A stretch of 64,000 bases of DNA from Methanofastidiosum sp. GTDB lineage: Archaea; Methanobacteriota_B; Thermococci; Methanofastidiosales; Methanofastidiosaceae. Below the pieces are notes generated by a model. It was not told the origin of the DNA. It searched no databases and saw only the letters and a list, made by a program, of their open reading frames with translations. Both the position numbers and the translations under genes were made by a program. Each line of letters starts with the position of its first letter. Within the stretch, counting starts at the first letter, position 1. Location of the stretch: positions 29,151 to 93,150 of the forward strand of contig DAOSDU010000006.1 of NCBI GenBank assembly GCA_035362715.1, given 5' to 3'. Positions 2 to 64,000 of this stretch are shown here, in pieces.

Positions 2-1225
2 ATAAGCTATCTAATGGATCAGGCTATGAAGGTTGGAGCTCCTGTGATCGGTATAAATGATTCCGGAGGCGCAAGGATACAAGAAGGTGTTGATTCCCTG
101 AAGGGGTATGGGGATATTTTCTACAGGAACACAATATCTTCTGGAGTTATACCTCAGATAACAGCTATTATGGGGCCTTGTGCTGGTGGTGCCGTTTATT
201 CTCCGGCAATAGGGGATTTTGTCTTCATGACCGATGTTACAAGTTATATGTTCATAACTGGGCCTCAAGTTGTAAAAACTGTGTTGCATCAGGATGTGAC
301 CTTTGAAGAACTTGGTGGGCCTCATGTCCACGAGACTAAAAGCGGAATGGCACATAGGGTTGGAAAAAATGACGAGGATACCTTAAATCTTATTAGAAAT
401 CTCTTCAGTTATTTGCCTTCAAACAACATGGAAGACCCTCCATCAATTGCACCAACAGATGACCCATTGAGGGAGACTCCTGAGCTTTATTCGATTATAC
501 CAGAAGATTCAAACAAAGGTTATCATGCAAGTCAAATTGTTAAAGCAGTTCTTGATAACAATGAATTCTATGAAATTCATCCTCTCTATGCACCAAATAT
601 CCTAGTTGGATTTGGGAGACTTGACGGAAAAGTCGTGGGCATAGTCGCAAACAATCCAAGCCATATTGCTGGAGTTTTAGATATTAACTCCTCTGACAAA
701 GCATCAAGATTTATCAGATTCTGTGATGCTTTTAACATTCCAATACTGACTTTTGTTGACACACCAGGTTATATGCCGGGATTAGACCAAGAGCATGGCG
801 GAATTATAAGACACGGTGCAAAGCTATTATATGCGTACTCTGAAGCTACTGTTCCTTTAATTACAGTTATTGTGAGAAAAGCTTACGGGGGGGCATATAT
901 AGCTATGGCTTCAAAACATCTACGGGCTGATGCAGTTTATGCGCTGCCAACAGCAGAGATTGCAGTTATGGGGCCAAAAGGCGCATGTGAAATAGTCTTT
1001 AGAAAAGAGATATCTGAAGCCTCTAATCCTACAAAGAAAACAGATGAACTAAGCGAAGACTACAAACAGAAATTTGCAAATCCCTACATGGCAGCTGCAC
1101 GTGGCTATGTTGATGATGTAGTTGACCCAAAAAATCTAAGAACGATACTAATCAATTCACTTAGGGTATACCAGTCAAAGAGAGAAGTACTACCCAAGAA
1201 AAAACATGGTATAATTCCATTCTAA
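2..1225 (+). CDS. Acyl-CoA carboxylase/decarboxylase carboxyltransferase subunit (PccB/MmdA 12S family), 5' partial (frame open to window start)
   Basis: Motifs [37 protein letters not shown]...[30 protein letters not shown] typical of carboxyltransferase 12S/PccB; ORF continues upstream of first Met to position 2. Confidence 0.85.
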
Positions 1226-1226
1226 G

Positions 1227-1571
1227 GTGGATATAATGGTAAACATGGATTATTTGACTTTAGGATTGACCTTAGTTATAGTTGGTATGGCTATAACTTT
1301 TTTGGTTTTGATTATTTTATCAGGAGTTATACATTATTTTGGTAAATTTATTAAAAATAGGGAAGAAAAGAAAAATAATAAAGAAGAAAAAATTAATCTA
1401 ACTGAAACTCAAACTGAAGATGAAGTAGGAATATCAAATGATGAATTAACTGCAATGATAACAGCAGCTTATTTCCATATATCTAAAGATGCAGTTTCAC
1501 TTATTAATTTGCATTCTAAGATAGATAACTGGAAATTATTAAGCAGACGAGAACAGATGGAGATGTTATAA
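1227..1571 (+). CDS. Small single-TM Lys/Glu-rich membrane protein, possible gamma/delta (OadG/MmdD-like) subunit of Na+-pumping decarboxylase
   Basis: N-terminal hydrophobic helix followed by charged KE-rich tail; position between carboxyltransferase and biotin carrier as in oad/mmd operons. Confidence 0.35.
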   Translation: MDIMVNMDYLTLGLTLVIVGMAITFLVLIILSGVIHYFGKFIKNREEKKNNKEEKINLTETQTEDEVGISNDELTAMITAAYFHISKDAVSLINLHSKIDNWKLLSRREQMEML

Positions 1572-2014
1572 TGGCTAAATACAAAGTTAATGTAGATGGA
1601 AAGGAGTACGAAGTAGAAGTTGAAAATATTGAAAGTGGAAATCTAGAGGTCAAGTTGGGTAATAAGAAGTCTACGGTTAATATCCAAGAGTTAATGGGAA
1701 CTGCTAGACAACAATCATCACCCAAACAAGTTTACCAAGCTCCATCCTATACTCCCCAAAGAGAAGCGCCTGCTCCAATTTCAAAACCGTCTTCAGGTAA
1801 AGGTGAGCCTGTAAAAGCCGTCATGTCAGGAACAGTTCTATCAATAAAAAAGAATCCAGGGGACAAAGTTTCAGTTGGGGACGTAGTATTGATACTCGAA
1901 GCAATGAAAATGGAAAATGAGATCTCCTCTCCATCAGATGGGGTAATAGGTAACATTTCAGTGAAACCAGGACAGACTATAAACACTGGTGATACCCTCT
2001 TCACAATAGGATAA
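1571..2014 (+). CDS. Biotin carboxyl carrier protein (biotinyl domain subunit)
   Basis: C-terminal biotinyl-lysine motif EAMKMENEI, Pro/Ala linker, hammerhead GDxV motifs. Confidence 0.75.
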   Translation: MAKYKVNVDGKEYEVEVENIESGNLEVKLGNKKSTVNIQELMGTARQQSSPKQVYQAPSYTPQREAPAPISKPSSGKGEPVKAVMSGTVLSIKKNPGDKVSVGDVVLILEAMKMENEISSPSDGVIGNISVKPGQTINTGDTLFTIG

Positions 2015-2022
2015 GTGATAAT

Positions 2023-3159
2023 ATGGTCGACTTAATATCGTCCTTTATTGAAATATTCAAAACAACAAGCGGGATTTTTGATTTATCTGCCGGTAATGTT
2101 GCGATGATAGTGGTAGGTTTCATACTTATATACCTCGCAATCTACAAGGGATTTGAGCCGCTATTGTTAGTGCCAATTGGTTTTGGGGCAATTCTTTCTA
2201 ATATACCATTAACTGGTATCTCTGACCCTAATGCAATTGGTGGGGTATTTGGTATTTTCTTAAAGTATCTGATAGCTAATGAAATTGTCCCTTGTCTAAT
2301 ATTCATGGGGATTGGTGCTCTGACAGATTTTGGGCCGTTGTTAGCAAATCCAAAAACATTCATACTTGGTGCTGCTGCTCAGATTGGAGTATTTATTGCG
2401 CTTGTAGGTTCAATTATACTTGGATTTACTCCACAACAAGCTGCCTCTATCGGAATAATCGGAGGAGCGGATGGACCAACTACAATTTATGTCACTACAG
2501 TTCTAGCTCCTGAATTATTAGGTGCTACTGCAGTAGCTGCATACTCCTACATGTCGTTAGTGCCGTTAATACTACCGCCTGCAATTATGCTTACAACTAC
2601 AAAAGCTGAAAGAAAAATTAAAATGGTACAGATGAGAGTAGTTTCACAGAAAGAAAAAGTTGCATTCCCAATCATAGCTGCAATTGTAACTGGATTATTA
2701 GTACCTAAGGCTATCCCATTAGTAGGACTTCTTTTTGTTGGAAATCTTTTCAGGGAGACAGGTGTTACACAAAGGCTTGCCAAAGGTGCTAGTGAGGAGC
2801 TTTTGAACATTGTGACAATTATCCTTGGACTTTCAGTTGGTAGTACTATGGATGCGGCCAACTTCCTTAATCTACAAACAATGAAGATCATGATTTTGGG
2901 AGTAGTGGCATTCTTTACTGCTGCATGTGGTGGAGTTATAGTTGCAAAGATAATGAATCTATTCCTAAAGGAGAAGATTAATCCTATGATAGGTGCTGCC
3001 GGTGTTTCAGCAGTTCCAATGTCTGCGAGGGTTGTACAGAAAATGGGATTAAAGGAAGACCCACAGAATCACCTTCTAATGCATGCAATGGGCCCTAATG
3101 TTGCAGGAGTCATCGGTACCGCTGTTGCCGCTGGAGTCTTGATAGCTTCTCTCGCTTGA
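2023..3159 (+). CDS. Na+-translocating decarboxylase beta subunit (OadB/MmdB/GcdB family integral membrane protein)
   Basis: Strong conservation with OadB: FEPLLLVPIGFGA, FMGIGALTDFGPLLANPKT, GIIGGADGPTTIY, LMHAMGPNVAGVIGTAVAAGV; multi-TM. Confidence 0.92.
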   Translation: MVDLISSFIEIFKTTSGIFDLSAGNVAMIVVGFILIYLAIYKGFEPLLLVPIGFGAILSNIPLTGISDPNAIGGVFGIFLKYLIANEIVPCLIFMGIGALTDFGPLLANPKTFILGAAAQIGVFIALVGSIILGFTPQQAASIGIIGGADGPTTIYVTTVLAPELLGATAVAAYSYMSLVPLILPPAIMLTTTKAERKIKMVQMRVVSQKEKVAFPIIAAIVTGLLVPKAIPLVGLLFVGNLFRETGVTQRLAKGASEELLNIVTIILGLSVGSTMDAANFLNLQTMKIMILGVVAFFTAACGGVIVAKIMNLFLKEKINPMIGAAGVSAVPMSARVVQKMGLKEDPQNHLLMHAMGPNVAGVIGTAVAAGVLIASLA

Positions 3160-6941: not shown

Positions 6942-7086
6942 GGGGACATGGTGTAATCAGGCCATCATCATGGACTCCAGAATCCTTTCCGGATGAAAGA
7001 GAATACTGATGGCGTAATGCCGATGAAGAAATTCTGGAGTTTGATGGGGAAATCCATGGATCAGGGTTCAAATCCCTGTGTCCCCA
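6942..7086 (+). tRNA. tRNA-Trp (CCA) with about 71-nt intron (approx 6981-7051) at canonical 37/38 position
   Basis: Acceptor GGGGACA/TGTCCCC, anticodon stem ATGGA...TCCAT with loop CTCCAG|A interrupted by intron, T arm CAGGG-TTCAAAT-CCCTG; archaeal tRNA-Trp characteristically carries an intron. Confidence 0.8.
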
Positions 7087-14448: not shown

Positions 14449-15828
14449 TTAGTCCCCTCCATTCTTTGACTTGTCCATGTGTTTTTCAATAAAGTCGGTG
14501 TGGAAAACTCCTCCTCTGAATATCTGGTTTTTCATGACTTTTTTGTGGAATGGAATTGTTGTTTTAATACCATCTACCATAAATTCGTCAAGTGCCCTGT
14601 ACATTCTGTCAATTGCCTCGTTTCTGTCTTCTCCCCATACAATCAATTTTGCGATAAGAGAGTCATAATATGGTGGTATCTGGTACCCTTGGTAACATGC
14701 TGTATCGACTCTAACAAAAGGCCCTCCCGGAAGGATAAGTTTTGAAATTTCACCAGGGGATGGAACGAATGTGTTTGGATCTTCAGCGTTAATTCTGCAT
14801 TCAATTGCATGACCTCTAATCTGAATGTCTTTCTGTGTGTATGGTAATTTTTCTCCAGCTGCTACTTTTATACCAGTCTTTACGATATCGATGTTTGTTA
14901 TCATTTCAGACACACAGTGTTCTACCTGGACCCTTGTGTTCATCTCCATGAAGTAGAAATCGTTTTCCTTATCGTTAAACAAAAATTCTACTGTTCCGGC
15001 ACCTTCATAGTTTGCAGCAAGTGCCGCCTTGACTGCTGCCTCCCCCATCTTCTTCCTTATTTCAGGGGATATAGCAGGTGAAGGTCCTTCTTCGACAAGT
15101 TTCTGATGTCTTCTCTGGATAGAGCAGTCCCTTTCTCCAAGGTATATTGCATTTCCATATTGGTCAGCAATAATCTGAATCTCAACGTGTCTTGGTTGTT
15201 CTATGTACTTTTCGATGTATACATCAGGGTTCCCAAAGGCTGCCTGTGCTTCGGCTTGACAAGATCTCAAAGCAGATTCTAGCTCTTTTTCGGACTTGAC
15301 AAGTCTCATTCCCTTTCCACCGCCGCCTGCTGAGGCTTTGCAGATTACAGGGACTCCGATCTTCTTTATGAGTTTATCGGCTTCCTCGATTGTTTTTATA
15401 ATTCCATCAGAACCGGGTGTTACTGGAACACCACCTTTCTTCATGGTATCTTTAGCTGTTGCTTTGTCTCCCATTGCGTCAATTGATTCTGCACTGGGGC
15501 CTATGAATTTAATTCCATTAGCTTTACAAAGCTTTGAAAATCTAGAGTTTTCTGCAAGAAATCCGTAACCTGGGTGAATACCTTCTGCGCCCGTGACAAT
15601 TGCGGCGTTAATGATATTCATCATGTTCAAGTAACTCTTAATTGATGCGGCAGGTCCAATATTGACTGCTTCATCTGCGAGTGTAACATGAAGAGCATCT
15701 TTATCAGCGTCAGAGTAAACAGCAACTGATTTTATTCCCATTTCCTTGCATGCCCTGATTATCCTTACAGCAATTTCTCCTCTATTTGCAACAAGAACTT
15801 TCTTAAACATATTAATCCTCCTTACCAA
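14449..15828 (-). CDS. accC: Biotin carboxylase (ATP-grasp)
   Basis: [46 protein letters not shown]: canonical AccC motifs; 459 aa. Confidence 0.92.
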
Positions 15829-17576
15829 TTTCTAAATTTGACTGGTGGTTCGTATAAACCTCCAGACCATTCTACAAGTTCACTCATGCTCTTTGCAGCA
15901 AGTTTTGATCTTTTAGCGTCATTAAATGATAGGTCTAAATCTTCAGGAAGCATAACTACTCCGGCCTTCCTTAATTTCTTAGTCTGTGAATCATCAGCTG
16001 CAAGTCCTAGAGGCGTGTATCCTGCTACTGCCTTAATTGCGTCCATTCTTTCCTTTAATGATTTACATTTGTGGATGTATGCGATTCCTTCTTCTGTAAC
16101 TATATGTGTTATATCGTCACCGTAAATCATGATAGGGGGTATCTCGAATTTGGCCTGGGCTTGTAGTTTGAACGCGTCTAGTTTTTCTAAGAATACTGGA
16201 GCCATTCCTTCTCCAAATGTTTCAACCATTTGGACTACTAGTTTTCTTCCTCTGTATATTGGCCCAATCAATGATTCTCTCATACCATCTTCTTTTGAAG
16301 CCATAAGCCATCCTTTTGACGGGTGTCTTCTACCGGGTGCGTTACATGCCATGTTAGGCGCCCCACCAAAACCTGGAATTCTTCCAGCAGTTGCAGCGGC
16401 ACTGTTACCAAATTGGTCAATTTGAAGAGTTGAACCAAAGAATGCATCTACAGCATAATGACCAGCGGCCTGGGACATTACTCTGTTTGATCTCATTGTT
16501 CCATCAGGACCTATTGGGAATATATCTGGTCTTGCCATAATATATTTCTCCATTCCAACTTCACTACCGAATGGCATGAAGGTTTCAGCCCATCCTGATT
16601 CTATAGCAGGTATCATTGTTGGGTGTGGATTTAATGCCCAGTGTGTACAAATCTTTCCTTTTAATCCCATCTCTTCCCCAAATGTTGGCAGTAAAAGTTC
16701 AACGGCTGCGGTGTTAAAACCTATACCGTGATTTAGAGTCTTAACTTCGTATTTTGCGTAGACTCCAACTAAAGCCATCATAGCTATGAATATCTGAGAT
16801 TCAGTAATTAATCTTGGATCTCGTGTAAAGAGAGGTTCAATATAATATGGGTCCTCAGTGGGTACAATAAAGTCAACCCAGCCACCAGGTATATCTACAC
16901 GAGGTACCTTGTTAACAATCTCATTGACCTGTACTATTACAATACCTTTTCTAAATTTGGTAGCTTCAATTATTGAATGGGTTTCTTCTGTGTTGAATCC
17001 TGTGTAAAGATTTCCTTCCTTGTCTGCAGCATTTGCGGCGACTAGACATACTCTTGGTGTGAGGTCAAGATAAGTTCTAGCAAACAATTCCATGTATGTG
17101 TGAATTGCACCAATTGTTATCTTCCCATTCATTACCATACTTGCAAGTCTTGTTGCTACAGGGCCTGAATAACAAAAATCAACTTTTGAGGCTATACCTT
17201 TTTCAAAAACATCTAAATGTTCTGGTAAAGCAAGTACTGATTGTACCATGTGAATATTATTTACTTTTGAAGGACTTACCTTTGCAAAAGCTTTTGCTAA
17301 AAAATTAGCCTGCTTCTGATTGTCCCCTTCTATTGCAACTCTGTCGCCTGGTTTAATGACAGTTTCCAAAAGAGCTACAGCATCGGCCGGATCAATGATT
17401 TTTGTACCTGATTTGACAAATCTCTTTGCTTCGGCAAGCCTTTTTTCTGTATCTTCTCCTTTTTTGTCCCATCCTTTTTTTGCTCTCTCTATTCTATCGT
17501 CATGGGGTATACCTGACACTTTGCCGGGTGTTTGGAATATATCCCTTAGGTAGTTTACATCTTCCATAAGTATCAC
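15822..17576 (-). CDS. MdcA/CitF-family alpha subunit (acetyl-S-ACP:malonate ACP-transferase / citrate-CoA transferase family)
   Basis: 584 aa, size and operon position of MdcA/MadA; CoA-transferase-family I-like segments; overlaps accC start. Confidence 0.55.
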
Positions 17577-20143: not shown

Positions 20144-21340
20144 CTATAAAAATCCATCTAAACTAGATTGATTATTCTTCTTTTTATTTAGATGCACCTT
20201 ACCGTACATCCCCCCTCCGCCTGGTTCTATATAGATATTGCCTTCTCTGAAATCAACTATTGCCTGAGCAACTTTTTCACCGGCGACTTTTTCTATTTCC
20301 TCTCTCGGGGTAACAATAAGAACATTTATCTCATTTTTGAATGACTGAACCAATATCTTCCAGAGATCTTGGACTTTTTTTGAATTTACTGAAGCAAGGC
20401 CAAGTGTCTGAACTAAAATTTCTGCGAGAGGAATAGTTTTGATGTATTTAGGTCTGTGTTCGGGATGAGTAACTTCTTGATCATGCAATTCTTTTATTCT
20501 ATCTGCAACGCCTTTTTTTATCAGACCTCCACAACTACACCTGTTCTTTATTTCGATTGCATTTTCAATTGTGTATTTTTTATAGCATCTTGTACATGCG
20601 GTCATGTGGTATTTTCCAAGATCAGGATCTATACCGACATTTAGAACAAATTCATTTCCTCCACGTCTTTTAATGGCCTTAATTATTTCATCGTAGTTAT
20701 TGTCCTTTACCTTTAGTCTGTTGAATTCTCTACCAATTCTATGCGGCCATGGCGAATGGGCATCTGAGTTGGTCATGAACGTGACATCTTTCAACTCCGA
20801 TATACAGTCAGCCATCTGAGCATCAGCAGAAAGGCCAAGTTCAAGGAAAGGTATATTTTTAGTCTTATAGCACTCTTCAAGGGAATCATATTCTTTGTAT
20901 ATTGAAGTCCATGGAGTAAAAGCATGAGATGGCCCAATTAATCCATCTATTTTGTTGACTATGTCTAAGAGCTGGTCTCCTCCCAGGTTTATATTGCATC
21001 TTCCATCAGTGTCTATATTTGGGGATTTATCTTTTATTATATTACGAAACTCTTCAACAGATGATAGAGAAGGGAATAAAATGACGTGGTGGACTCTCCT
21101 TTGATCTTCTACTTCTGTAGTCAGGATGAATCTCATCCCACTTTTATGCTCAAATGTACCATCATCTATTTTGGTTACTGAAGAAACAAAATGATTAAGC
21201 CAGTTCTTATTGAGGCAATCCCCAGACCCTATTGTGTTTAATCCCTTAAATTTTGACTGTTCTGCAATAACAGGGATTTCCATGTTATTGGAAGTACCTC
21301 CAGAATACATTGAATGAATATGAAAATCGACATTTATCAT
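20144..21340 (-). CDS. PHP-domain metal-dependent phosphoesterase family protein
   Basis: N-terminal VDFHIHSMYSGG characteristic of PHP domain; C-terminal Cys cluster. Confidence 0.55.
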   Translation of the reverse strand: MINVDFHIHSMYSGGTSNNMEIPVIAEQSKFKGLNTIGSGDCLNKNWLNHFVSSVTKIDDGTFEHKSGMRFILTTEVEDQRRVHHVILFPSLSSVEEFRNIIKDKSPNIDTDGRCNINLGGDQLLDIVNKIDGLIGPSHAFTPWTSIYKEYDSLEECYKTKNIPFLELGLSADAQMADCISELKDVTFMTNSDAHSPWPHRIGREFNRLKVKDNNYDEIIKAIKRRGGNEFVLNVGIDPDLGKYHMTACTRCYKKYTIENAIEIKNRCSCGGLIKKGVADRIKELHDQEVTHPEHRPKYIKTIPLAEILVQTLGLASVNSKKVQDLWKILVQSFKNEINVLIVTPREEIEKVAGEKVAQAIVDFREGNIYIEPGGGGMYGKVHLNKKKNNQSSLDGFL

Positions 21341-53982: not shown

Positions 53983-54025
53983 GTCCAGGGCGCCATTACT
54001 TTCTTTTGGCAGAACAGCCCTGGAC
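53983..54025. other. GC-rich 9-bp hairpin (GTCCAGGGC...GCCCTGGAC, 25-nt loop) in AT-rich intergenic region
   Basis: Inverted repeat read directly; second IR GCCTAGG...CCTAGGC at 54070-54106. Confidence 0.5.
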
Positions 54026-54285
54026 TATTCAACAATTAAATTTATAAATCGAAATTAAGCGGGTAGATTGCCTAGGTGGTCAAATAGTCTGTAATTCAGC
54101 CTAGGCGAAATACTATTTCTAATTATCTAACAAGCTAAATTTAAGGTAGATTCTTCTCTTATTATAATTAATATATCATATTTATGCTATTTTTAGTTAG
54201 TTTTAAATAGTATTTATTTTTAATAGCTCTGATTAAGATTTGGTAATTTGGGGGGTTTATTATAAAAGAACCCGAAGATCTTGCT

Positions 54286-54486
54286 TTGGCTGCAGTTGGG
54301 AGATTGATTAGGGGAGAGGGGATAGAGAGAGTTTCTGAAGATGCATGCATAGCTTTGGCCTTGGCACTTGAAGAATATGCAAGGCAGATAACAAGAAAGG
54401 CAAAAGACTATTCGACTCATGCTAAAAGAAAAACAATAAAACTTGATGATATTGAGCTTGCACTGAAAGATTTTAAGATTAAATAG
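54286..54486 (+). CDS. Archaeal histone (HMf-like histone fold), TTG start
   Basis: AAVGRLIRGEGIERVSEDACIALALALEEYARQITRKAKDYSTHAKRKTIKLDDIELALKDFKIK matches archaeal histone consensus. Confidence 0.8.
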   Translation: MAAVGRLIRGEGIERVSEDACIALALALEEYARQITRKAKDYSTHAKRKTIKLDDIELALKDFKIK

Positions 54487-54653
54487 ACTATATATAAAAA
54501 TAGTAATAAATTACCAGATAACCCTGTCTCTCTTTCTCTTGCACTTCTTACAAACTAAAAAAGTTCCCTCGGTCTTCTGATCATAGCAATAGCTAGCAGT
54601 CCTCTCAATCGGCCTTGCCAAAACTACCCCGCATCTAACACAATAATATTCTC

Positions 54654-55322
54654 TCATGCTTTCATAATCCATGCCACTTCATAATATTTTGGCCTAATAT
54701 CAATTGTAAATCCTGCAACTCTTGTGGTGGTGTCCCCTGCAAAAGTCCAAGACCCTGCTACAGTCTTTGTATGGCTACCGCCAGTTGTCCCAGGATTTGT
54801 TGAAGAAGTCGTTATGCCCTGAAGGAAGCGGTCAATTAGATTAGGCGTCCCGTTGTTTCCATCGCAAAGAAGCCATCCTGATGGGATGCTTGTTAATACC
54901 CCACTCCAAGCCACAATAACTCCAGGCGGTACAAACGAGGGTAATCCCGAAATAACGTTTGTAATTGAAGAGATTGAACTAGCCCCCGCAACAACTGTCG
55001 CAAGTAGCATCGCATCATCCGGCAAAGTTACGGAAGTTGAGATTGTGAGCCAGTTAGCGCCGTTGTCAGAATGCAGATAAACATAGTTTGTGCTATTTGC
55101 TGTTGCTGTCAAAGATTCTGCAGCATCTGAAACAACTTGAAACATGCCCCCGGCCGCATCCTTTACATATGCAGTTCCAGCAGAAACGCTAAGATTAAGG
55201 CCACTGTCAACTGAAACTGTAAATCCTGTCTTTTTGCCTTCAGGAAAGAAATCCCCGAAATACTGCCTGAAATCAGCCGAGGTGATTTTTGCCCCTGCCG
55301 ATACCTTTTTTGTAAATGTCAT
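54654..55322 (-). CDS. Phage tail fiber protein with tail-collar domain
   Basis: GVIVAWSGVLTSIPSGWLLCDGNNGTPNLIDRFLQG...GGSHT matches Phage_tail_collar domain. Confidence 0.75.
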   Translation of the reverse strand: MTFTKKVSAGAKITSADFRQYFGDFFPEGKKTGFTVSVDSGLNLSVSAGTAYVKDAAGGMFQVVSDAAESLTATANSTNYVYLHSDNGANWLTISTSVTLPDDAMLLATVVAGASSISSITNVISGLPSFVPPGVIVAWSGVLTSIPSGWLLCDGNNGTPNLIDRFLQGITTSSTNPGTTGGSHTKTVAGSWTFAGDTTTRVAGFTIDIRPKYYEVAWIMKA

Positions 55323-55332
55323 GAATATACCT

Positions 55333-55836
55333 TTAAAATTCTATAACGTAATAAACAGTCATTGTTTTTGTGTTGCTGAAAGTTTTTGTTGGAGAGATCA
55401 ATGAGTGAGTAAGAAGGTCTGTCTGATTGGCAGCATAAAGTCCAAGCTCCGCCCATGTGCCATAATAATCAGCTTCCGTGTAATCAAAATAATAAGTTGC
55501 CTCAGATTTATTTGAATAGGTATTGTTATGCAAGCTCCCGGGGACATAAGATTTTAATGATCCTAACTGTGTTGTTAGGGCCAGATCTGTTGCTGCAACT
55601 GCCGAGCTTCCAGTACCCACCGCTAACTTTCCTAGAACATGTTTATTTGCATCATAATCTCCTGTCAGCACATCTGCAAGTGCAGCTTTTAGTTTGTTTG
55701 TGATCAGATTCTTCTGCCATGACCCTCCAATGACCTTGTCTCTTTCAAGATCATATTCTACAATCTTGAATTTTCCAAGGTAAGGATTTTTATCCCCCCT
55801 CACTAGTTCTATTATGTCCAATCGCTCACGTCCCAT
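55333..55836 (-). CDS. Putative virion structural protein, paralog of 60787..61176
   Basis: LAVGTGSSAVAATDLALTTQLG vs ALGSGTTAEANDQTALVTEI shared pattern. Confidence 0.4.
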   Translation of the reverse strand: MGRERLDIIELVRGDKNPYLGKFKIVEYDLERDKVIGGSWQKNLITNKLKAALADVLTGDYDANKHVLGKLAVGTGSSAVAATDLALTTQLGSLKSYVPGSLHNNTYSNKSEATYYFDYTEADYYGTWAELGLYAANQTDLLTHSLISPTKTFSNTKTMTVYYVIEF

Positions 55837-58800
55837 CTCGCTTCATTGTCATCATATTCGGTCTCATAATCTGTTGCCGTCTCAAAAATATTTTCTGATA
55901 ATACGACTGCAGGTGTTTCAGTTGTCTCTTTATAATCTGTTGTCTGCTCCTGTGATTCCAGGATATTTTTGACTTTCAGCCTTCTAAGCTCGGAAAACAA
56001 GTTTGCAAATGCGGAGTAAAAGTCATCTGCAGCTGTGCATGTCAAGGTGACTGTTGAAATCTGCCGCTCTTTTATCTCGTAAGTTACCGACAGTATTGTT
56101 TGATCTTCAAGCGTTGGCATTCCAGGAAGGGAAGTAAACTCAATAACCTGGCCCGCCTTCAATCTTTTCCCGGGGGGATTTATCACGAGTCGGGATGCAT
56201 TTTTTAGCGCATATTCTATTGCCTTTTGCTGCGCCAAAGTCAATGCAGTGTCTGCCTCCTGGATGGTCAGATCTATAATTGGGATATCTGTATGGTATTC
56301 AAACATCATTGTTTCTGTTGTGGCGCTTTTTACAATCTGCACCCCATAGTAAGTCTTGAAGGCCAGCTTCCCAGTTGCTGCGGTCCATGATCCAGCAAGA
56401 GTTTTGTATTTATGGCCGCTTGTCGTTGTGTTATTATGCACAACTTTGTAAGTGTCTGTTGCCGTGCCAATAATATTGAAAACGATCCAGTTTGTTTTTG
56501 ATATGTCAAGCTGACAATCAACAAGCGTTGTTTTTACCCAGCCGCCGTCAGTGGAAATATCTTCTTGAGGGATTGATCCAAAGCCGATAATGCTTCCAGT
56601 TGGATTTCCGCCGTTATCTTCTACGATTGTGAAGATCATATCATCAAGAGGATTTCCTACCTTTTTGACATAAACGTCCAGGAACAGTATATTTGATTTT
56701 GAGGGCGTAAATGTCGAGGCATAGGATTTATCGTGCAGAGAAACTTCTGTTGTAGTTGTGGACTGGCTGAAATCCAAAAATCCCTGTTTGCCGCCGACAA
56801 CATACACCCTGTCAAAGTATTTCATTGCATCTCGCTTGATCTTAGCGCTTATGATTTCCCCACTTGATATAACGTGGTCTGCTGATAGATCCGCCGCATC
56901 GTAGAAGTTCAAATCGTCATTTTCATCAATGTAAAAGTCAGCACCCACAAGGCTAGCAACTTTATCAATTGCCTGGCCAACATACTCCCATGCAAAGGTC
57001 ATGGATGGAATTGCTTCCGCAAAAGTTTCAAGATTAGTTGTTGTTATTTCAGGGCAATACCTAGAAATAATATCTGAAACTATTTCATCGGCAGTTTTGT
57101 TGTTATAAGTTTCGGCGCCTGATATAGTTGTTTGGCCGGCCCTAATTGACCCATAGTCTTCGCCAGAAAGTATTATGCGATTGCTCCTGTACTCGTCCAG
57201 CTCAAACTCAACTGAGGTGATAAGGCCATGGAAGATCTTTGTGACCGGCGGATCATTTTCATCGACATAGAAGAATACTTCATTCCCCACCTCAAATGTT
57301 TCGGATAACGCCCCGTTATCATTGTATAAACTGATTTCAAAGTAATCCGATCTTTTTCCTTTCTCGTCAGTGAATCTTGCATATTCAATTATGTTTAAGG
57401 CTGAAAGATCTATTTCAACATCGCCAGCCTGTCCCACAATTATGGCCCAAAAAAGTGGTGTCGCTCCGGATGTTTCAGATTTTATTGATAAGGCGCCATA
57501 AGAAGAATAATTTATTGATTCAACCTCAGTGAACTGAAATGCTCCTTTGGATTCAAAAGTGAGTATCTCAATATCTGTATCAACATCCTGGATAATTATG
57601 GAACTATGAGAATCTACTTCTATTAATGAGTGATAGACGCATGCAGTTGCAACTTCCATGGTACTGGCGCCAGCTGCTTCGTTTTCCCCCACAAATGAAG
57701 TATTCAATTGAATATCCATTTGCGCATCACTTGTTATTGCTTCACTGATGATATATGAGGTGATGCCGTTGAATGTAAGATCCCCTATCCCGATAATGTT
57801 TAGTGTTTTTTTGAAATCTGTTTTTATCTCTGCTGTGATTGATCCCATGCCGGCAATCTCTATCAGGTCAGTGTCTGAATCGATGTCCTGGAGCAAAAGA
57901 GATCCATTTGCAGCATATGTAGCGCTTATTATGTAATCTGTGTTTGCGGCTAACTCTAGGGAACCGGCACCGAGCATTATAATATCGGGAGGGGTCCATA
58001 AAGTATAAACAATTATTTTAGCTTTTGAGATATAATCTATTAGCTCAAGATCCTGGATCTGGATTAATCCATGGCCAGAGAAAAGGATTAGTTCGATATC
58101 ATAATCAATGTCCTGAATTGTAACTGAGGAAGCTGCACTCAATAAAGCGCTATAAGTATAATCTGTTGTCGTGATTATCTCTACTGCAGCTTGAGAAGAA
58201 ACTTCAAGAAGATCATACTTATTCATATGCCCTGTTAAGGTGACAAAGGACAATCCTGTCGTGATTATATTAGAAAAATAATTCCCGATTGCAGATAGTT
58301 CAACTGAAGATGCCGCATTCAAAAAGGCGCTATAAGTATAATCTGTTGTCCGGCTTATTTCAACTGACCCGGCACCGATAAAAGTGATAAGTTCAATATC
58401 AGTGTCTATATCATTTGTGACTATTGAAGCGGTGCTTGTGTAATTGATACCATAAATATAATCCGTGACTGTTGTAATTTCAATTGCTGCATTGCTTTGG
58501 TATTCTACCACTGCCGTGGACCCCGAATAATCCCATACTCCAAATGCACCGGCACTGGTAAATGTGATCAGTTCAATATCAGTCTCTACGTCATAAGCGA
58601 CTATTGAAGCAATGCTTGTGTAGTTTACGAGAGATGAGTAATTTGTGGCTGCTGCGATTTGTATTTCACTTTGGGCCCCAAATGATATTATCTCAAGATC
58701 AATGTCAATATCTTGTATTGTAACTGATCCAGCGCCGCCAAATGCGACTTCAACTACTTTCCCTAAGATTGCGCCTATTTCAAAAGTTGCTGCGCCGGTG

Positions 58801-60713
58801 ATGTTTGAAATACTGACCAACTGTTTATGCCCTAAAGCTTCAGTTGTTCCGGCCCCATCAAAAGTTACAGATAAGGCCAAGCTGGAAATTGCAGAAACGG
58901 CAGATGATCCATAACCTGAAAATGTGATAAGTTCAATATCAGTGTCTTTGTCCTGGGAAACGACAGCGCCCAAGCTGGTATAGTTAATATTACAAATATA
59001 ATCAGTAACAGTTGCAACTTCAACTGCCGCATAGCTTTGGTAAGTGATTGTTTGGCTGTATGCTGCTGTTGCCGCAATTGTTACTGCACCTGTCCCTGTA
59101 AGTTCAGCTAATGAATTATACCCCACTTGTTCTTCACAAGAAACACTGCCTTTGCTGGCGATAAGTATTGTTTCAATATCGGTATCAATATCTTGTATAA
59201 CTATTGATCCATATCCTGTGAGAGCTATAGTCTCAGAATATATCAAGCCATAAGTGCAAGAAACTGCACCGTTTGAAGTATAAGTTATTGTTGCTGCTCG
59301 AGCTACTCCGGCTGCGGTCACCGCAACTGCAGCATTTCCAGTATAAGTAACTGTTTCTTCATATTCCTCTCCAGAAGCCTCGGTATATTCTATCACAAGC
59401 TTTGGGTCATAGCTTGTCCCAGAATACTCAGACGAATAGATATATCCGGTATAAGCAGTAGTCAGGCTGGGCGGACTATCTGCATAATCATAGGTGTATT
59501 CCATCAAGCAGTATTTTGTTGTGCCTGTTGTTGAAACGTCTGATTTGCCAGTTGCGTCAAGGTCGATTGTTTTGTAGCCGTTGGTGCTTGTAGCTATAGT
59601 GCCATAAGAGCTCCCGCTATACGCTGTGAAATCGCTTGTTGTAAGTGAAGCTGCCTGTGTCCCTTTCAATGCGCAAAGCGTGGCACCATTGCTAGTTGAA
59701 TAGACATAAACAGAAAGAGCGGCTGTATCGATTGTTGCGCCGTCTGGGATATCTGAAGTATCAAAGTATAGAAATCCCCTTCTTATCGTGTATGCATAGC
59801 CTAGAAGCTGCTTATCAAAGGATTTGCTCGTGCTGACAACTATGGCTGTGGCGGTGTCATAAACTGTGGCACCACTTGTGCGTGCCGTGCTCCAAGACGT
59901 GCTGTATGTTCCTTTTATATCCCCGTCTGCAGAAGTGGAATAATAAGTTGTAGAATCGATATATATTGTTTTTTTGCCTTTCAGTTTTTCATTGCCGGGA
60001 CCGAGAAGGCCGTATTTTTGGACCATCCACGCCCAATTTTTGGCCTTATCATCAAAGTACTTGACATAGAAAATTCTGCCTTCTTTTTTTACGATCTTGT
60101 GCTTCAAAGGTTGCGAGAAGTAATCAAGATTTTCTACCCACATCCTGGGCCTGGGTATCCAGATTTTTTCTTTTGTATCCAGTTCAAAAGTAAATGTTTC
60201 TGCCTTTTTCCCCTTCGGATGGAGTCCCTTCAGATGCAGCTCATACCAGACTTCAACATCTTTCAAATGGATCTTTTCGGTATCCACCACAATAGATTCC
60301 TGGACATAGCGCTCATGGACCCTGTTGTGGATCCAGATGCCATCAGAAATGACGTGCTTCAGTTCGTAATCATTTACCCGCACAATTTTGGTAAATCTAT
60401 CAAAAGTAACTTCTTCCCCATTCAGTATGATCTTAGCGATACTTGCTTCGTATTGCTGATCATACCCTTTTCGGAAGCCAAAATATTTTTCTTTCTTTCT
60501 GTCTTTTCTAAATCCAACAGAAAATTTGTGCTTGTCCATTATGAATTTGTCTTTTTCTTCACGGATCGTTATATCAATAGTTCTTAGATTGTGATTGTCA
60601 TCTTCATAATGGATGGGCTTTTCGTGATAGATCTTTCTGAACTTTCCTGGCGCAATTTGAAATGTTTTTGAAGTAAGAGTCCTTTTTTCAATTACCTCTT
60701 GCTTTTTATTCAC
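55812..60713 (-). CDS. Giant (1633 aa) tail/baseplate protein with central tandem repeats of about 55 aa and C-terminal distal-tail/tail-lysin-like region
   Basis: At least 8 repeats with core IQDIDTDIELITF..G.GS; located immediately after tape measure and small protein as Dit/Tal are in siphoviruses. Confidence 0.55.
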   Translation of the reverse strand: MNKKQEVIEKRTLTSKTFQIAPGKFRKIYHEKPIHYEDDNHNLRTIDITIREEKDKFIMDKHKFSVGFRKDRKKEKYFGFRKGYDQQYEASIAKIILNGEEVTFDRFTKIVRVNDYELKHVISDGIWIHNRVHERYVQESIVVDTEKIHLKDVEVWYELHLKGLHPKGKKAETFTFELDTKEKIWIPRPRMWVENLDYFSQPLKHKIVKKEGRIFYVKYFDDKAKNWAWMVQKYGLLGPGNEKLKGKKTIYIDSTTYYSTSADGDIKGTYSTSWSTARTSGATVYDTATAIVVSTSKSFDKQLLGYAYTIRRGFLYFDTSDIPDGATIDTAALSVYVYSTSNGATLCALKGTQAASLTTSDFTAYSGSSYGTIATSTNGYKTIDLDATGKSDVSTTGTTKYCLMEYTYDYADSPPSLTTAYTGYIYSSEYSGTSYDPKLVIEYTEASGEEYEETVTYTGNAAVAVTAAGVARAATITYTSNGAVSCTYGLIYSETIALTGYGSIVIQDIDTDIETILIASKGSVSCEEQVGYNSLAELTGTGAVTIAATAAYSQTITYQSYAAVEVATVTDYICNINYTSLGAVVSQDKDTDIELITFSGYGSSAVSAISSLALSVTFDGAGTTEALGHKQLVSISNITGAATFEIGAILGKVVEVAFGGAGSVTIQDIDIDLEIISFGAQSEIQIAAATNYSSLVNYTSIASIVAYDVETDIELITFTSAGAFGVWDYSGSTAVVEYQSNAAIEITTVTDYIYGINYTSTASIVTNDIDTDIELITFIGAGSVEISRTTDYTYSAFLNAASSVELSAIGNYFSNIITTGLSFVTLTGHMNKYDLLEVSSQAAVEIITTTDYTYSALLSAASSVTIQDIDYDIELILFSGHGLIQIQDLELIDYISKAKIIVYTLWTPPDIIMLGAGSLELAANTDYIISATYAANGSLLLQDIDSDTDLIEIAGMGSITAEIKTDFKKTLNIIGIGDLTFNGITSYIISEAITSDAQMDIQLNTSFVGENEAAGASTMEVATACVYHSLIEVDSHSSIIIQDVDTDIEILTFESKGAFQFTEVESINYSSYGALSIKSETSGATPLFWAIIVGQAGDVEIDLSALNIIEYARFTDEKGKRSDYFEISLYNDNGALSETFEVGNEVFFYVDENDPPVTKIFHGLITSVEFELDEYRSNRIILSGEDYGSIRAGQTTISGAETYNNKTADEIVSDIISRYCPEITTTNLETFAEAIPSMTFAWEYVGQAIDKVASLVGADFYIDENDDLNFYDAADLSADHVISSGEIISAKIKRDAMKYFDRVYVVGGKQGFLDFSQSTTTTEVSLHDKSYASTFTPSKSNILFLDVYVKKVGNPLDDMIFTIVEDNGGNPTGSIIGFGSIPQEDISTDGGWVKTTLVDCQLDISKTNWIVFNIIGTATDTYKVVHNNTTTSGHKYKTLAGSWTAATGKLAFKTYYGVQIVKSATTETMMFEYHTDIPIIDLTIQEADTALTLAQQKAIEYALKNASRLVINPPGKRLKAGQVIEFTSLPGMPTLEDQTILSVTYEIKERQISTVTLTCTAADDFYSAFANLFSELRRLKVKNILESQEQTTDYKETTETPAVVLSENIFETATDYETEYDDNEARWDVSDWT

Positions 60714-60786
60714 ACCTGAAAAACTGTAGTCGTATCCGGCCAGTCTATCACTTTACCCAATTTTAAAAAAATAAAAAAAAATAGAT

Positions 60787-61176
60787 TTATGCCCTGGATT
60801 CAGTCTCTTTGATAATGATCTGCAGAGAGTCGCCGCCTTCAACAGCCTTTGTCGCTGAGAACTTGTGCCTCATCAGCATGTCCCCTGCAGGATCCCCGTC
60901 ATCGTTGAAAATTCCAACTTCGTTGACGGATAAGCTTCCTGTAAAGGAAAAGGTCTTTGTCCACTTTGCCTTGTAGTCAGCCTCATATTCGCAAGTGGCA
61001 GCCGCCCTTGCTCCGCCGTTAGTTGTAATTTCTGTGACTAATGCTGTTTGGTCGTTTGCCTCTGCTGTTGTTCCAGAGCCTAGTGCGATATATGTGAATG
61101 GGGCAGTAGATACACCATTCAAGAGTTTGGCCTTCATTTCAAGGCCTTTGTTCACGAGTGTTGCCATAAGATTCAA
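60787..61176 (-). CDS. Putative virion structural protein (129 aa)
   Basis: Paralogous to 55333..55836; between TMP and giant protein. Confidence 0.4.
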   Translation of the reverse strand: MNLMATLVNKGLEMKAKLLNGVSTAPFTYIALGSGTTAEANDQTALVTEITTNGGARAAATCEYEADYKAKWTKTFSFTGSLSVNEVGIFNDDGDPAGDMLMRHKFSATKAVEGGDSLQIIIKETESRA

Positions 61177-61287
61177 CTCTCCGTTTTTTCTATTTTCGGG
61201 TAGTCATTTCCCATCTCTTTTATGTTGCCGTCTTTATCTCTGACTACCCATGTCACGAGATATTCCGTCTTGCTTTTTGCTTCCATT

Positions 61288-63150
61288 CTAGAATCCCACC
61301 CTGGTGATTCTATTGATTCGCTTCAGGATTTCATCGGCGATCTTGTCTGGGTCGCCACTTCCTGAAATATTGAAGGTATTGTTCACGACCATGCTTTTTC
61401 CCTGGAGCTTTGATCCATCCTTGAACGCCAGAATATTGTCATCCTTGTGGAACTGCACAACTTCGCCTTTTTTTGTAATCAAAGCATCGTTTACTCTTTT
61501 TGAGATTTCTCCAGTTGCTGTGTTCATGTAACCGACGAGAGCACCACCGGAGCTATTGCGGATTGTCTCGTAAGTTACGCCGCCGCTTGAAAAAGAATTT
61601 GTAACGACTGCATTCCCCCTTTCGGGGCCTTCATAGACTATATCGCTTCCAGCTTGAACTCTTTCAGAAGATCCAAAAGTCCTGCAGCCGCTGCCGCCCC
61701 CTCCGGAAGGATTCAACATCTGCCTGACAATGTTCATTGCGCTGTTCATGTAGTTGACTGCACCGCCAGCAGTTTGGCCCAACTGATCAACTTCCCCTGC
61801 AGTTTTGCTTGTGCTGCCCCTCAAAATAGCCAGATATTCATTTGCAAGCTGCACCGCATTTGTGTTGTTTGTGATTTCAAGACTGTTTTGCTTTGTCTTT
61901 TCCTTGTTTTCATTTTCAGCACGCTCTATCTCTCGCAAGCGTCCCAATGCATCTGCGGCATTTTCTGATTCTATTGGAAGTGTGTTTGGACTTACAGCCC
62001 CAGGGCTAACCCACTGCCCCCTAGCAGCCGCCTCATAAGAGGTATAAGCTCCGGCCTTTTCATACTGCACTTGTTGTCCCGCATAATCCCAAATGGCCAT
62101 GCCCCCGGGATTTGTTGCCCTAAGTCCAAGATCTATAATCTTGTCAAGGTGTAAATCCTTGATAATGACACTTATCCTGGAAAGCGCATCTTCAATTATG
62201 CCCAAAATATATGATACCCTGTCAAAAGCATCGGCCAGTTTTGTGATCGCCTCTTCAGAAGAAGTAACGCCAGCGAGCTTCATGATAATGTTGCCAAGTT
62301 CAGAACCAAAGCTTATCGAATGTTCTAAAAGATTCCCAAACGCATCTACAAGCGGTTGGATTTCCCCGGAGTTTATCATCTCTGAAATCTTGTTTGCAAT
62401 GTTTTCTAATGTTGGCGCTATTGCCCCGGTCAGCTCATCTCCAAAAAGCGTCTTTAGATTTTGGACCTGATTTTGAAAATTGGCAAATATCCCTGCAGTT
62501 GAGTTCCTGAGCGCCTCTGCACTTCCGCCAAAAGATTTTTCCATCTGCTTTGCCAGGTAGTCCATCTTTTGTGCTGCCGACATTGATTTCATGCTGACTG
62601 AATCAAGGACGACACCGTTCTGTTCGAGCGTTGATGTGCTCCCACTAAGAGCCATTGCAACTTGCTTTGTTGCAGTCTCTAGATCCATACCCTCTGCTGC
62701 TGCATAGTCTTCCGCTGCTAACAAGAGCTTTAGCGACCGGTCATAATCCTTTGTTACGGCTATCAGATTGTTGAAGCTTTTCCGAATTGAGATGTCGTCG
62801 ATGGATGTCAGTTCAGAATGCTGGCCTATCACCTTTTCAATCTGCTTTGAGTAGGACTGTATTCCTGCATTTTTCAAAAGATTTCCTGTCTGTGACTGAA
62901 ACTTTGATTGCTCTAAAGAGAGCTTTACCATCTCACGATTCAAGTTTTGTACTGCGGCAATGCCGTAGGTCGTTATGGCAGTTGCCATCGTTCCCACAGC
63001 TACCTCTGCCGCATGGCCCAAAGAATACATTGCCCCGCCGGCTTTGGATGTGCCCTTCTCAAGGCCGCCAAGCGCCGACTCAACATTTTTTATAGGGCCT
63101 GATGCCCTGTCTTCAGCAGTTACAGTTATCTTGACATTTTGCTCTTGCAT
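61288..63150 (-). CDS. Tail tape measure protein
   Basis: 620 aa, helical/low-complexity, Gly-rich tracts, ETATKQVAMALSG-type segment; follows two small overlapping chaperone-like ORFs. Confidence 0.6.
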   Translation of the reverse strand: MQEQNVKITVTAEDRASGPIKNVESALGGLEKGTSKAGGAMYSLGHAAEVAVGTMATAITTYGIAAVQNLNREMVKLSLEQSKFQSQTGNLLKNAGIQSYSKQIEKVIGQHSELTSIDDISIRKSFNNLIAVTKDYDRSLKLLLAAEDYAAAEGMDLETATKQVAMALSGSTSTLEQNGVVLDSVSMKSMSAAQKMDYLAKQMEKSFGGSAEALRNSTAGIFANFQNQVQNLKTLFGDELTGAIAPTLENIANKISEMINSGEIQPLVDAFGNLLEHSISFGSELGNIIMKLAGVTSSEEAITKLADAFDRVSYILGIIEDALSRISVIIKDLHLDKIIDLGLRATNPGGMAIWDYAGQQVQYEKAGAYTSYEAAARGQWVSPGAVSPNTLPIESENAADALGRLREIERAENENKEKTKQNSLEITNNTNAVQLANEYLAILRGSTSKTAGEVDQLGQTAGGAVNYMNSAMNIVRQMLNPSGGGGSGCRTFGSSERVQAGSDIVYEGPERGNAVVTNSFSSGGVTYETIRNSSGGALVGYMNTATGEISKRVNDALITKKGEVVQFHKDDNILAFKDGSKLQGKSMVVNNTFNISGSGDPDKIADEILKRINRITRVGF

Positions 63151-63310
63151 GCTCTTTTCTCTTTTTGATAAGCTCTTCGGCCTGAATTCTCTTTTCTTCC
63201 TGGGTGTCTTCCGGATTCTGGTACAAAATATAGCCCCTCACAAGCCTCCTTTTTTCAAGGATTGTGAGTCTTGGTATTTCCCAAACCTTATATCCAAGCT
63301 GGTGCAGCAC
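63113..63310 (-). CDS. Tail assembly chaperone, downstream (T-like) ORF, probably expressed as frameshift extension of 63318..63638
   Basis: Its frame is open upstream to 63364, overlapping last 15 codons of upstream ORF; overlaps TMP start. Confidence 0.4.
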   Translation of the reverse strand: MLHQLGYKVWEIPRLTILEKRRLVRGYILYQNPEDTQEEKRIQAEELIKKRKEHARAKCQDNCNC

Positions 63311-63317
63311 CTGCTCC

Positions 63318-63638
63318 TCAAGGAGCCTTGCCTTTGTTTCCAGGCTCAGAACGAAAGGATTCTTTTATGTCACTGATATCAAGGAGCTTTTGGACTAGTT
63401 GCGCAATTGCCTTTGTCTTCCCAAACTTTTTGATTTCATCAGAGGAAAGCTTTGGCTCAACAATATGTGCTGATAGAATATCGTATCCTTTTTGAGGATC
63501 TGACAAAAGTGCTATTTCGCCCTCAGGGATTGGTATGACCTTGGCATCCTTGCCATGCTCAATCTCGATAATGATTGCTTTCAGCTCCCCTTTTTCATCC
63601 CGCTCATGCAGAAAGTATGATTTTTCAACTATCGCCAT
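63318..63638 (-). CDS. Tail assembly chaperone (G-like)
   Basis: 106-aa acidic ORF between major-tail-like gene and TMP. Confidence 0.4.
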   Translation of the reverse strand: MAIVEKSYFLHERDEKGELKAIIIEIEHGKDAKVIPIPEGEIALLSDPQKGYDILSAHIVEPKLSSDEIKKFGKTKAIAQLVQKLLDISDIKESFRSEPGNKGKAP

Positions 63639-63647
63639 ATGATCGCC

Positions 63648-64000
63648 TCACCAGTTGGTCTTTGCAAAAGGTGCCTCCCAAAAAACTTCTGCGGATGTGC
63701 CAGAGAATGAAAACTTGTAGCTCATCTTTGTGTCAAGGGGGAATACTGCGCTGTAGTCTGAAAAGATGCAGTTTGAAAGAGTTATCTTTAGAGAATCTGA
63801 TGCCTCGTCTGCATAGCCCTTGTCAATTACAATATCCTTTGCAGCAAGTGCTTCATTTGTAGAGGTCCCGCCAAGCACCAGCTGCTCTATTTCGTTTGCA
63901 GTTATTGAGTCTGGGATGTAAGCTGTTATTGATCCATTTATTGCCTCAAACTTTCCGGAGTATGCTGTCGAGGGGGATCTTGCAGCAAGGCCGTGTCCTA
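63648..64000 (-). CDS. Putative major tail protein, C-terminal part (ORF open through window end)
   Basis: No stop in frame between 63879 and 64000; position upstream of chaperones/TMP. Confidence 0.35.
   Translation of the reverse strand, partial: GHGLAARSPSTAYSGKFEAINGSITAYIPDSITANEIEQLVLGGTSTNEALAAKDIVIDKGYADEASDSLKITLSNCIFSDYSAVFPLDTKMSYKFSFSGTSAEVFWEAPFAKTNW

Follow-up and report, generated by a model that had tools for sequence, protein, structure and literature searches.

A 64,000-nucleotide stretch of DNA from Methanofastidiosum sp. (assembly GCA_035362715.1, contig DAOSDU010000006.1, positions 29,151 to 93,150 of the forward strand; hereafter the window) holds a tailed provirus integrated in an archaeal genome. 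Close to the end of the window lie two overlapping reading frames on the minus strand, as are all genes at this locus, and we assign them as most likely the tail-assembly-chaperone G/T pair of the provirus. We propose that the long form of the chaperone is probably made by a +1 ribosomal frameshift at UCC_UUU_CGU (63359-63351), of the type known from influenza A PA-X. A preliminary description of this DNA had placed a +1 shift closer to the 3' end, at the CCU-UGA that terminates the upstream frame. The features of the overlap are as follows (ORF, open reading frame; aa, amino acids).

63318..63638, minus strand: 106-aa G-like ORF for a tail assembly chaperone; a Shine-Dalgarno-like GGTGAGG precedes its ATG, and its 3' end reads AAA GGC AAG GCT CCT TGA (TGA at 63320-63318)
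63365..63367, minus strand: +1-frame TAA that bounds the possible shift interval on its 5' side, present at this position (two codons 5' of CCU_UUC) in 22/35 unique homologues
63351..63362, minus strand: proposed +1 signal GAA_UCC_UUU_CGU (in frame 0 of G: GAA 63362-63360, UCC 63359-63357, UUU 63356-63354, CGU 63353-63351), marked by invariance in homologues, CGN rarity and TTT_CGN avoidance elsewhere
63113..63364, minus strand: +1-frame T ORF, 83 codons, with a variable linker VLSLET and then the conserved T domain from KARLLEEQ (63334 on); its stop is 63115-63113
63318..63323, minus strand: CCT TGA, the shift site of the preliminary description, here merely the end of G
63308..63310, minus strand: GTG, the first ATG/GTG/TTG and mechanical 'start' of the T ORF, not conserved as a start codon

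The basic geometry agrees with the preliminary description, which had the upstream ORF (63638-63318) ending in AAG GCU CCU UGA and the downstream ORF in the +1 frame relative to it. Its 15 open codons upstream of the GTG are actually 18, back to the TAA at 63367-63365. The overlap also lacks a canonical -1 slippery heptamer (X_XXY_YYZ), as had been noted. A -1 mechanism was rejected, as the -1 frame is closed by stops in the overlap and does not encode T.

For comparison, 72 homologous loci (L001-L072) were gathered, and a close set was defined as those with at least 60% G identity, comprising 57 sufficiently long loci and 37 unique sequences. All 57 of these loci carry their T-like ORF in the +1 frame, and the conserved arrangement of G and +1 ORF exceeds chance. 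The start of T is far more labile. The earliest codon at which T could begin is the GTG in 18 of 35 unique close homologues, some others have their first start codon deep within the conserved T domain, and two of the 35 have no ATG, GTG or TTG anywhere across a +1 ORF of 82-85 codons. As the start of T is not conserved, independent initiation is therefore not the conserved way to make T; a consistent start of its own for T, named beforehand among the observations that would speak against frameshifting, was not seen in the close homologues. Gene callers missed T in every homologous locus or called it in the wrong frame.

Frame-specific selection locates where the +1 frame comes into use. Ratios of nonsynonymous to synonymous differences per site (pN/pS, Nei-Gojobori) were computed for each frame over the 37 unique sequences, with relative coordinates (rel) counted from the T of TCC at window position 63359.

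G body: frame 0, 0.21; frame +1, 1.40
Linker (rel 9..25): frame 0, 0.78; frame +1, 0.87; neither frame constrained
Final five codons of G ahead of its stop (rel 25..40): frame 0, 9.7; frame +1, 0.18
Rel 31..40: frame +1, 0.19; in frame 0, pS = 0
T domain: frame 0, 1.45; frame +1, 0.31

The switch of constraint from frame 0 to frame +1 precedes the stop codon of G. The +1 codons R-L-L upstream of CCU_UGA vary synonymously (AGG/AGA; CTC/CTG/CTT/CTA; CTT/CTG), and the same changes read in frame 0 are nonsynonymous (A/T/N/V; P/A/S/T/D; stop/G). As the +1 frame is under purifying selection before CCU_UGA, the ribosome must therefore already be in the +1 frame upstream of the stop, and the shift lies upstream of 63334.

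Together with the TAA on the 5' side, the onset of +1 constraint on the 3' side leaves a permitted interval of about 10 codons. The only invariant nucleotides within this interval are GAA_TCC_TTT_CG (63362-63352). The signal TCC_TTT_CGN is kept in 57/57 loci (37 unique) of the close set. Invariance was re-tested without preselecting sequences by motif and holds in every locus with at least 60% G identity, so it is not a selection artefact. Synonymous variation is absent from only 4 of 45 conserved degenerate codon columns, K6, E93, S94 and F95, the last three of which are consecutive (TCC in 37/37 and TTT in 37/37 unique sequences). The following arginine, R96, is always encoded by CGN (CGT 23, CGC 13, CGA 1) and never by AGR (0/37). 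An AAA_G at K92 (63365-63363) was also tried as a shift site and rejected, as AAG stands there in 10/36 sequences.

Codon usage sets this conservation in relief. Of all sense codons, the host uses CGT, CGC, CGA and CGG least (0.4-1.1 per 1000, AGA being at 25); in the provirus ORFs CGT comes last, and CGN is rare in all related viruses. TCC is likewise a minor serine codon in the host, at 6.1 per 1000, yet it is invariant at S94 in spite of five synonymous alternatives. Outside the chaperone, the codon pair is avoided: across 168 further unique ORFs, each 200 aa or longer (63,441 codons, from L001-L072 and window positions 54001-64000), in-frame TTT_CGN was observed 0 times against 7.1 expected, while controls in the same ORFs were not depleted (TTC_CGN, 12 versus 6.2 expected; TTT_AGR, 26 versus 29.5 expected). 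This absence suggests selection against an intrinsically shift-prone codon pair. The sole other in-frame TTT_CGN in the long ORFs of the window is a GAG_TTT_CGT at about 21049-21044 (minus strand), codons 98-99 of a 398-aa host ORF (20144-21340, minus strand).

The identity of the pair as tail chaperones draws on its neighbours, which flank it as follows.

63648..64000, minus strand: tail tube gene, 3' part, continuing past the window end; a complete copy exists in identical loci
61288..63150, minus strand: gene for the 620-aa tape measure protein, sharing 38 nucleotides with the end of the T ORF and weakly matching phrog_991 (tail length tape measure protein)

In the identical metagenomic loci L001-L004, the complete tube product is 326 aa, belongs to PF18906 (Phage_tube_2) and ends 10 nucleotides before G. 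The tape measure protein is NCBI entry HOI77063.1 of Methanofastidiosum sp. The window and every longer homologous locus have the gene order tube (PF18906), G, T, tape measure, and the G-like ORF has tentative fold matches to HK97 TAC and YqbN. Pfam and PHROG scans returned no significant family for G, T or their fusion, blastn found no match to the chaperone region among 50,697 phage records, and an Rfam scan found no family in it. Given the location between tube and tape-measure genes, the fold matches and the absence of a conserved T start, the earlier reading of a chaperone pair with a +1 shift stands, while its site, its tRNA and its junction peptide do not. The homologue comparison likewise divides its claims, in that the overlap and the +1 ORF are conserved and CCU-UGA is not.

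In the mechanism that we envisage, most ribosomes would make G (106 aa) and stop at the TGA, and a minority would shift +1 at UCC_UUU_CGU with an E-site UCC, a P-site UUU and the rare CGU as A-site codon. The TTT at 63356-63354 is followed by C 63353, and tRNA-Phe is predicted to be able to re-pair from UUU to UUC (63355-63353). Decoding would resume at GUU (63352-63350), giving a 174-aa GT fusion in which G residues 1-95 (...DIKESF) are followed by VLSLETKARLLEEQVLHQLGYK..., with ESFVLSLETK as the predicted tryptic peptide across the junction. By analogy with phage lambda, binding of the tape measure protein would fall to the G part and recruitment of the tube protein to the T part, and a low-efficiency site would suit the minor GT species of the chaperone pair. 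From the analogy with PA-X and from the conservation pattern we infer a ribosomal event on UUU_C, in the +1 and not the -2 direction; a low shift efficiency and the roles of the G and T domains are inferred as well.

Two other +1 sites were weighed against UCC_UUU_CGU. A stop-stimulated shift of tRNA-Pro at CCU_UGA (63323-63318), as given in the preliminary description, would produce the junction ...GKAP-EEQVLHQLGYK... and the peptide APEEQVLHQLGYK. The sequence CCT TGA is indeed present, a +1 shift there enters the T frame, stop-adjacent +1 sites are known from prfB (CUU_UGA) and the Listeria phage tsh gene ((AAA)CCC_UGA) (PMC5009743), and the distant relative L083 has AAA_CCC_TGA with T in +1. 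The CCC_UGA idea is thus reasonable in itself but inapplicable to the window. The +1 frame is constrained before the stop (0.18 in +1 versus 9.7 in frame 0), as the synonymous R-L-L changes also show, the stop itself is not conserved (TGA is GGA in 6/35 unique homologues, where G is 10 codons longer), and neither is the P-site codon. The last sense codon of G is CCT in 23, GCT in 6, TCT in 3, ACT in 2 and GAT in 1, none of which re-pairs well after a +1 slip, the move from CCU to CUU included. We regard a shift at CCU_UGA as extremely improbable. A shift of tRNA-Lys at AAA_G (AAC_AAA_GGC, AAA at 63335-63333; ...PGNK-ARLLEEQ...) would give a fusion reading ...SEPGNK, AR and then LLEEQVLHQLGYK, without ESFVLSLETK. 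Here tRNA-Lys re-pairs well (AAA to AAG), the site sits within the permitted interval just before the constrained +1 codons, AAA is found in 33/35 unique sequences, and the distant L048 offers only candidates of the AAA_G type. However, the site is absent from two lineages that keep TCC_TTT_CGN (AAG_GGC in L015/16/62; CAA_AGC in L035/36), coding of K (AAG) in the +1 frame suffices to explain why AAA hardly varies, and the A-site codon GGC is not rare. A shift at AAA_G also fails to explain why GAA_TCC_TTT lacks synonymous variation, why R96 is CGN-only and why TTT_CGN is avoided elsewhere, and we consider it unlikely.

Production of T with no frameshift at all, from the GTG at 63310 or by termination-reinitiation after G, finds some encouragement in an SD-like (Shine-Dalgarno-like) GAGGAG upstream of that GTG, in the distant L079/L080, where T clearly has its own ATG overlapping the G stop (GTGATGG), and in a clade at 50% identity with a TTG preceded by GGAGGT 9 nucleotides upstream. 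The lability of the start codon in close homologues speaks against it, as do the conserved +1 residues KARLLEEQ, located upstream of the GTG and subject to purifying selection; the SD-like motif is moreover only 3 nucleotides from the GTG and is GAAGAG in 14/35. Separate synthesis of T therefore appears quite unlikely. A -2 shift, other recoding at or near the signal, or transcriptional slippage could lead into the same frame, since -2 and +1 arrive at one reading and sequence cannot separate the directions, and phage Mu gpGT does use -2 (PMC3498833). A -2 shift at the signal would yield the junction peptide ESFFVLSLETK. After a -2 move from UUU, however, the tRNA would stand on CCU, with which tRNA-Phe does not pair, and the identical PA-X sequence gave solely the +1 peptide by mass spectrometry (PMC3498833). 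Transcriptional slippage was rejected for want of a long homopolymer run, the longest in the interval being A4 and T3. We attach very little probability to this group of explanations, and the +1 shift at UCC_UUU_CGU accounts for the data with good likelihood.

Several points nevertheless weigh against the shift at UCC_UUU_CGU. The support is purely comparative and the frameshift is a prediction. The abundance of archaeal tRNA-Arg is deduced solely from the codon usage of one 64-kb window, and the ORFs of the TTT_CGN avoidance test are mutually related and not independent. The signal is absent from two related clades (about 50% identity in L039-47/69/70, about 36% in L048) and is thus not family-wide, while the distant UUU_CGN carriers described below were picked for FR at the C-terminus and form a biased sample. 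No convincing stimulatory RNA structure was found 3' of the site (RNAalifold consensus -7.1 kcal/mol with a covariation term of -0.9; single-sequence minimum free energy z = -0.86), a feature that matches PA-X. One recurring helix pairs CCUUU (63358-63354) with an invariant AAAGG (63335-63331) 18 nucleotides downstream over 5 bp. Each of its positions is intact in at least 27/28 sequences with no compensatory change and it includes the shift site itself; a ribosome at the site would unwind it, and the helix is uninformative.

In influenza A PA-X, a +1 shift at UCC_UUU_CGU was proven by mass spectrometry, with an efficiency of about 1% (Jagger 2012; Firth 2012, PMC3498833). The favoured model has the P-site tRNA-Phe re-pair from UUU to UUC while the rare CGU waits in the A site, and mutation of the E-site UCC cut efficiency by 40-70% (PMC3498833). 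UUU_CGN is also the motif of amalgaviruses and is found in fijiviruses and chronic bee paralysis virus (PMC5052127), and bacteria are prone to +1 shifting at UUU_Y (PMC5009743). The window shares with PA-X an identical nine-nucleotide core, a +1 ORF that opens just upstream, extreme synonymous conservation of UCC and UUU, a rare host CGN in the A site, no need for a 3' RNA structure and, as predicted here, a low-efficiency product that would fit a minor protein species. The two differ in that the window concerns an archaeal host and a double-stranded DNA (dsDNA) tailed provirus rather than a eukaryotic RNA virus, with a tail chaperone fusion as the product. Further, the third base of the arginine codon and the next codon vary here (CGT/CGC/CGA, then NCY), an additional upstream GAA is invariant, and the +1 peptide, shown for PA-X, is a prediction here.

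Another parallel is found in the HF1 group of haloarchaeal myoviruses (HF1, HF2, Serpecor1 and Hardycor2), for which a +1 shift at TTT-CGC (TTT-CGn) between tail-chaperone coding sequences has been predicted (Dyall-Smith 2020, PMC7230728). We checked the HF2 sequence, which reads GAG AAG TTT CGC AGA TAG. Both systems belong to tailed viruses of archaea, and in both a pair of chaperone ORFs stands between the tube and tape-measure genes, the downstream one in +1, with TTT_CGN in a perfectly conserved stretch; both predictions are bioinformatic. HF2 differs in having AAG rather than UCC in the E site, in the motif standing two codons before the stop (12 in the window), and in its host, a high-GC haloarchaeon in which the rare codon is TTT rather than CGC; HF2 is also a myovirus. 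No homology between window G and the HF2 chaperone was detected (BLASTP E 0.62; hhalign probability 0.2%). A local pattern GK[ST]..IA..LDIS...FR does occur just upstream of TTT_CGN in both, as GKTKAIAQLVQKLLDISDIKESFR in window G (63389-63330, minus strand) and GKSIEIAERVLDISSNAEDAEKFR in the HF2 chaperone (L073:31341-31420). The pattern is suggestive of very remote common ancestry but is not statistically significant (E 0.62).

Among bacteriophages, lambda gpG/gpGT reportedly exemplify a tail-chaperone frameshift conserved in dsDNA phages, as Levin in 1993 and Xu, Hendrix and Duda in 2004 are said to have described. Lambda G and GT are made at about 30:1. The window resembles lambda in the position between major tail and tape-measure genes, in a short G and a longer GT sharing an N-terminus, in a T without its own start and in the presumed role, a fixed G:GT ratio. 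Lambda and most phages use -1 on X_XXY_YYZ, whereas the window is predicted to use a +1 P-site slip with a hungry codon; the same family as window G does include -1 members with A_AAA_AAA (L081, L082). Known +1 sites also include the tsh genes of Listeria phages PSA, A118 and A500 and the major tail protein of Bacillus phage SPP1 ((AAA)CCC_UGA), besides prfB CUU_UGA. The phage examples are likewise +1 shifts in tail genes of tailed viruses, and L083 has AAA_CCC_TGA at the equivalent position, but the window has UUU as the P-site codon of its proposed shift, and its G stop is not conserved and does not coincide with the shift position.

The DNA of eight distant family members was then compared; those with FR C-termini were chosen on purpose, and their frequency is not representative.

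L074: TCC_TTT_CGT_TGA_TGA, T in +1, UCC_UUU_CGN
L075: TCC_TTT_CGG, T in +1, UCC_UUU_CGN
L078 (60% GC): GAC_TCC_TTT_CGT, T in +1, UCC_UUU_CGN
L077: AAC_TTT_CGA, T in +1, UUU_CGN
L083 (1501-2005): AGA AAA CCC TGA, T in +1, (AAA)CCC_UGA of the Listeria phage tsh type
L081 (1412-1930) and L082 (346-900): TTA_AAA_AAA_AAT/C_TAA, T in -1, classical -1 A_AAA_AAA
L079 (1157-1701) and L080 (495-1039, identical protein): GTGATGG, T in -1, separate T with its ATG overlapping the G stop

In the members ending in FR, F is always TTT and R always CGN, and a serine preceding the phenylalanine is always TCC. The L083 site is positionally equivalent to UCC_UUU_CGU of the window, because the +1 frame reads NP.. 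in both. The A9 or A10 run of L081/L082 is long enough for transcriptional slippage too. In L079/L080 the -1 frame is closed three codons upstream of the T ATG, which points to translational coupling rather than frameshifting. In the clade at about 50% G identity (L039-L047, L069, L070; e.g. L040:4001-4400), there is no TTT_CGN and T is still in +1; G ends GAA TCC AGA TGA TAA, with tandem stops, where the main clade has GAA TCC TTT CGT. This clade may use an independent T start or a stop-adjacent shift without re-pairing; neither it nor L048 shows a clear shift site. A motif LH..GY..[FW].[IM]..LT..E is shared by the T domains of the window and the distant relatives. One chaperone family thereby spans +1 at UCC_UUU_CGN, +1 at CCC_UGA, -1 at A_AAA_AAA and a separate start codon.

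According to a 2021 review, a -1 shift in fucA1 is the sole programmed frameshift demonstrated by experiment in Archaea (PMC8211752), and +1 shifting is described as apparently present in virus HSTV-2 (PMC8211752, PMC5009743). Our comparison makes the window locus a well-supported candidate for a new, independent and better-supported case of the TTT-CGn chaperone shift proposed earlier for the HF1 group, and it adds a second, unrelated lineage to that proposal. Together with selection by frame, rarity of the A-site codon and avoidance of the motif in other viral genes, the 37 unique sequences indicate that an archaeal virus uses the exact nine-nucleotide influenza PA-X signal. Whether UCC_UUU_CGN is a +1 signal spanning domains of life, effective on archaeal as on eukaryotic ribosomes and present in tailed viruses of at least two archaeal groups (Methanofastidiosum and, through the HF1 group, haloarchaea), with the equivalent recoding site swapped repeatedly within one chaperone family, we would put at even chances. 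If so, the absence of TTT_CGN from other viral genes would mean that the motif is intrinsically shift-prone in these hosts, and the signal would provide a simple and portable way to test for +1 frameshifting in Archaea, so far undemonstrated there. Its 12 nucleotides can go directly into reporter assays, and the existence of several interchangeable recoding solutions in one family should be useful for annotating archaeal and metagenomic viruses.

The host assignment of the provirus draws on the rest of the window, which contains replication factor A (RPA), an archaeal-type prolyl-tRNA synthetase (ProRS) and an intron-containing tRNA as archaeal markers. By exact-sequence look-up, ProRS (HOI77028.1), RPA (HOI77034.1) and the tape measure protein (HOI77063.1) belong to one metagenome-assembled genome (MAG) of Methanofastidiosum sp., an uncultured methanogen-related archaeon from anaerobic digesters. 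GC content is 36.5% for the whole window and about 44-48% for related viral loci. The near-identical viral contigs L050, L051 and L053 come from MAGs labelled Cloacimonadota, Prolixibacteraceae and Rikenella, and also 'Thermococci archaeon'. Because the window shows integration beside Methanofastidiosum genes, the bacterial labels are probably binning errors.

Downstream in the tail region, a 1633-aa protein (55812-60713, minus strand) contains long, loosely repetitive segments rich in Thr, Ser, Ala and Ile. It comes after a Gp80-like fibre protein (60787-61176; Pfam PF23140, E 1.9e-6) and is presumably a host-recognition fibre. Elsewhere in the window, a 145-nucleotide Rfam tRNA match at 6942-7086 (plus strand), directly after tRNA-Cys and missed by ARAGORN, is probably an intron-containing archaeal tRNA. 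The host flank (14-3159 and 14449-17576) encodes methylmalonyl-CoA decarboxylase alpha-like and Na+-translocating decarboxylase beta subunits, mdcA (malonate decarboxylase alpha) and biotin carboxylase, a Methanofastidiosum decarboxylase cluster that may merit attention.

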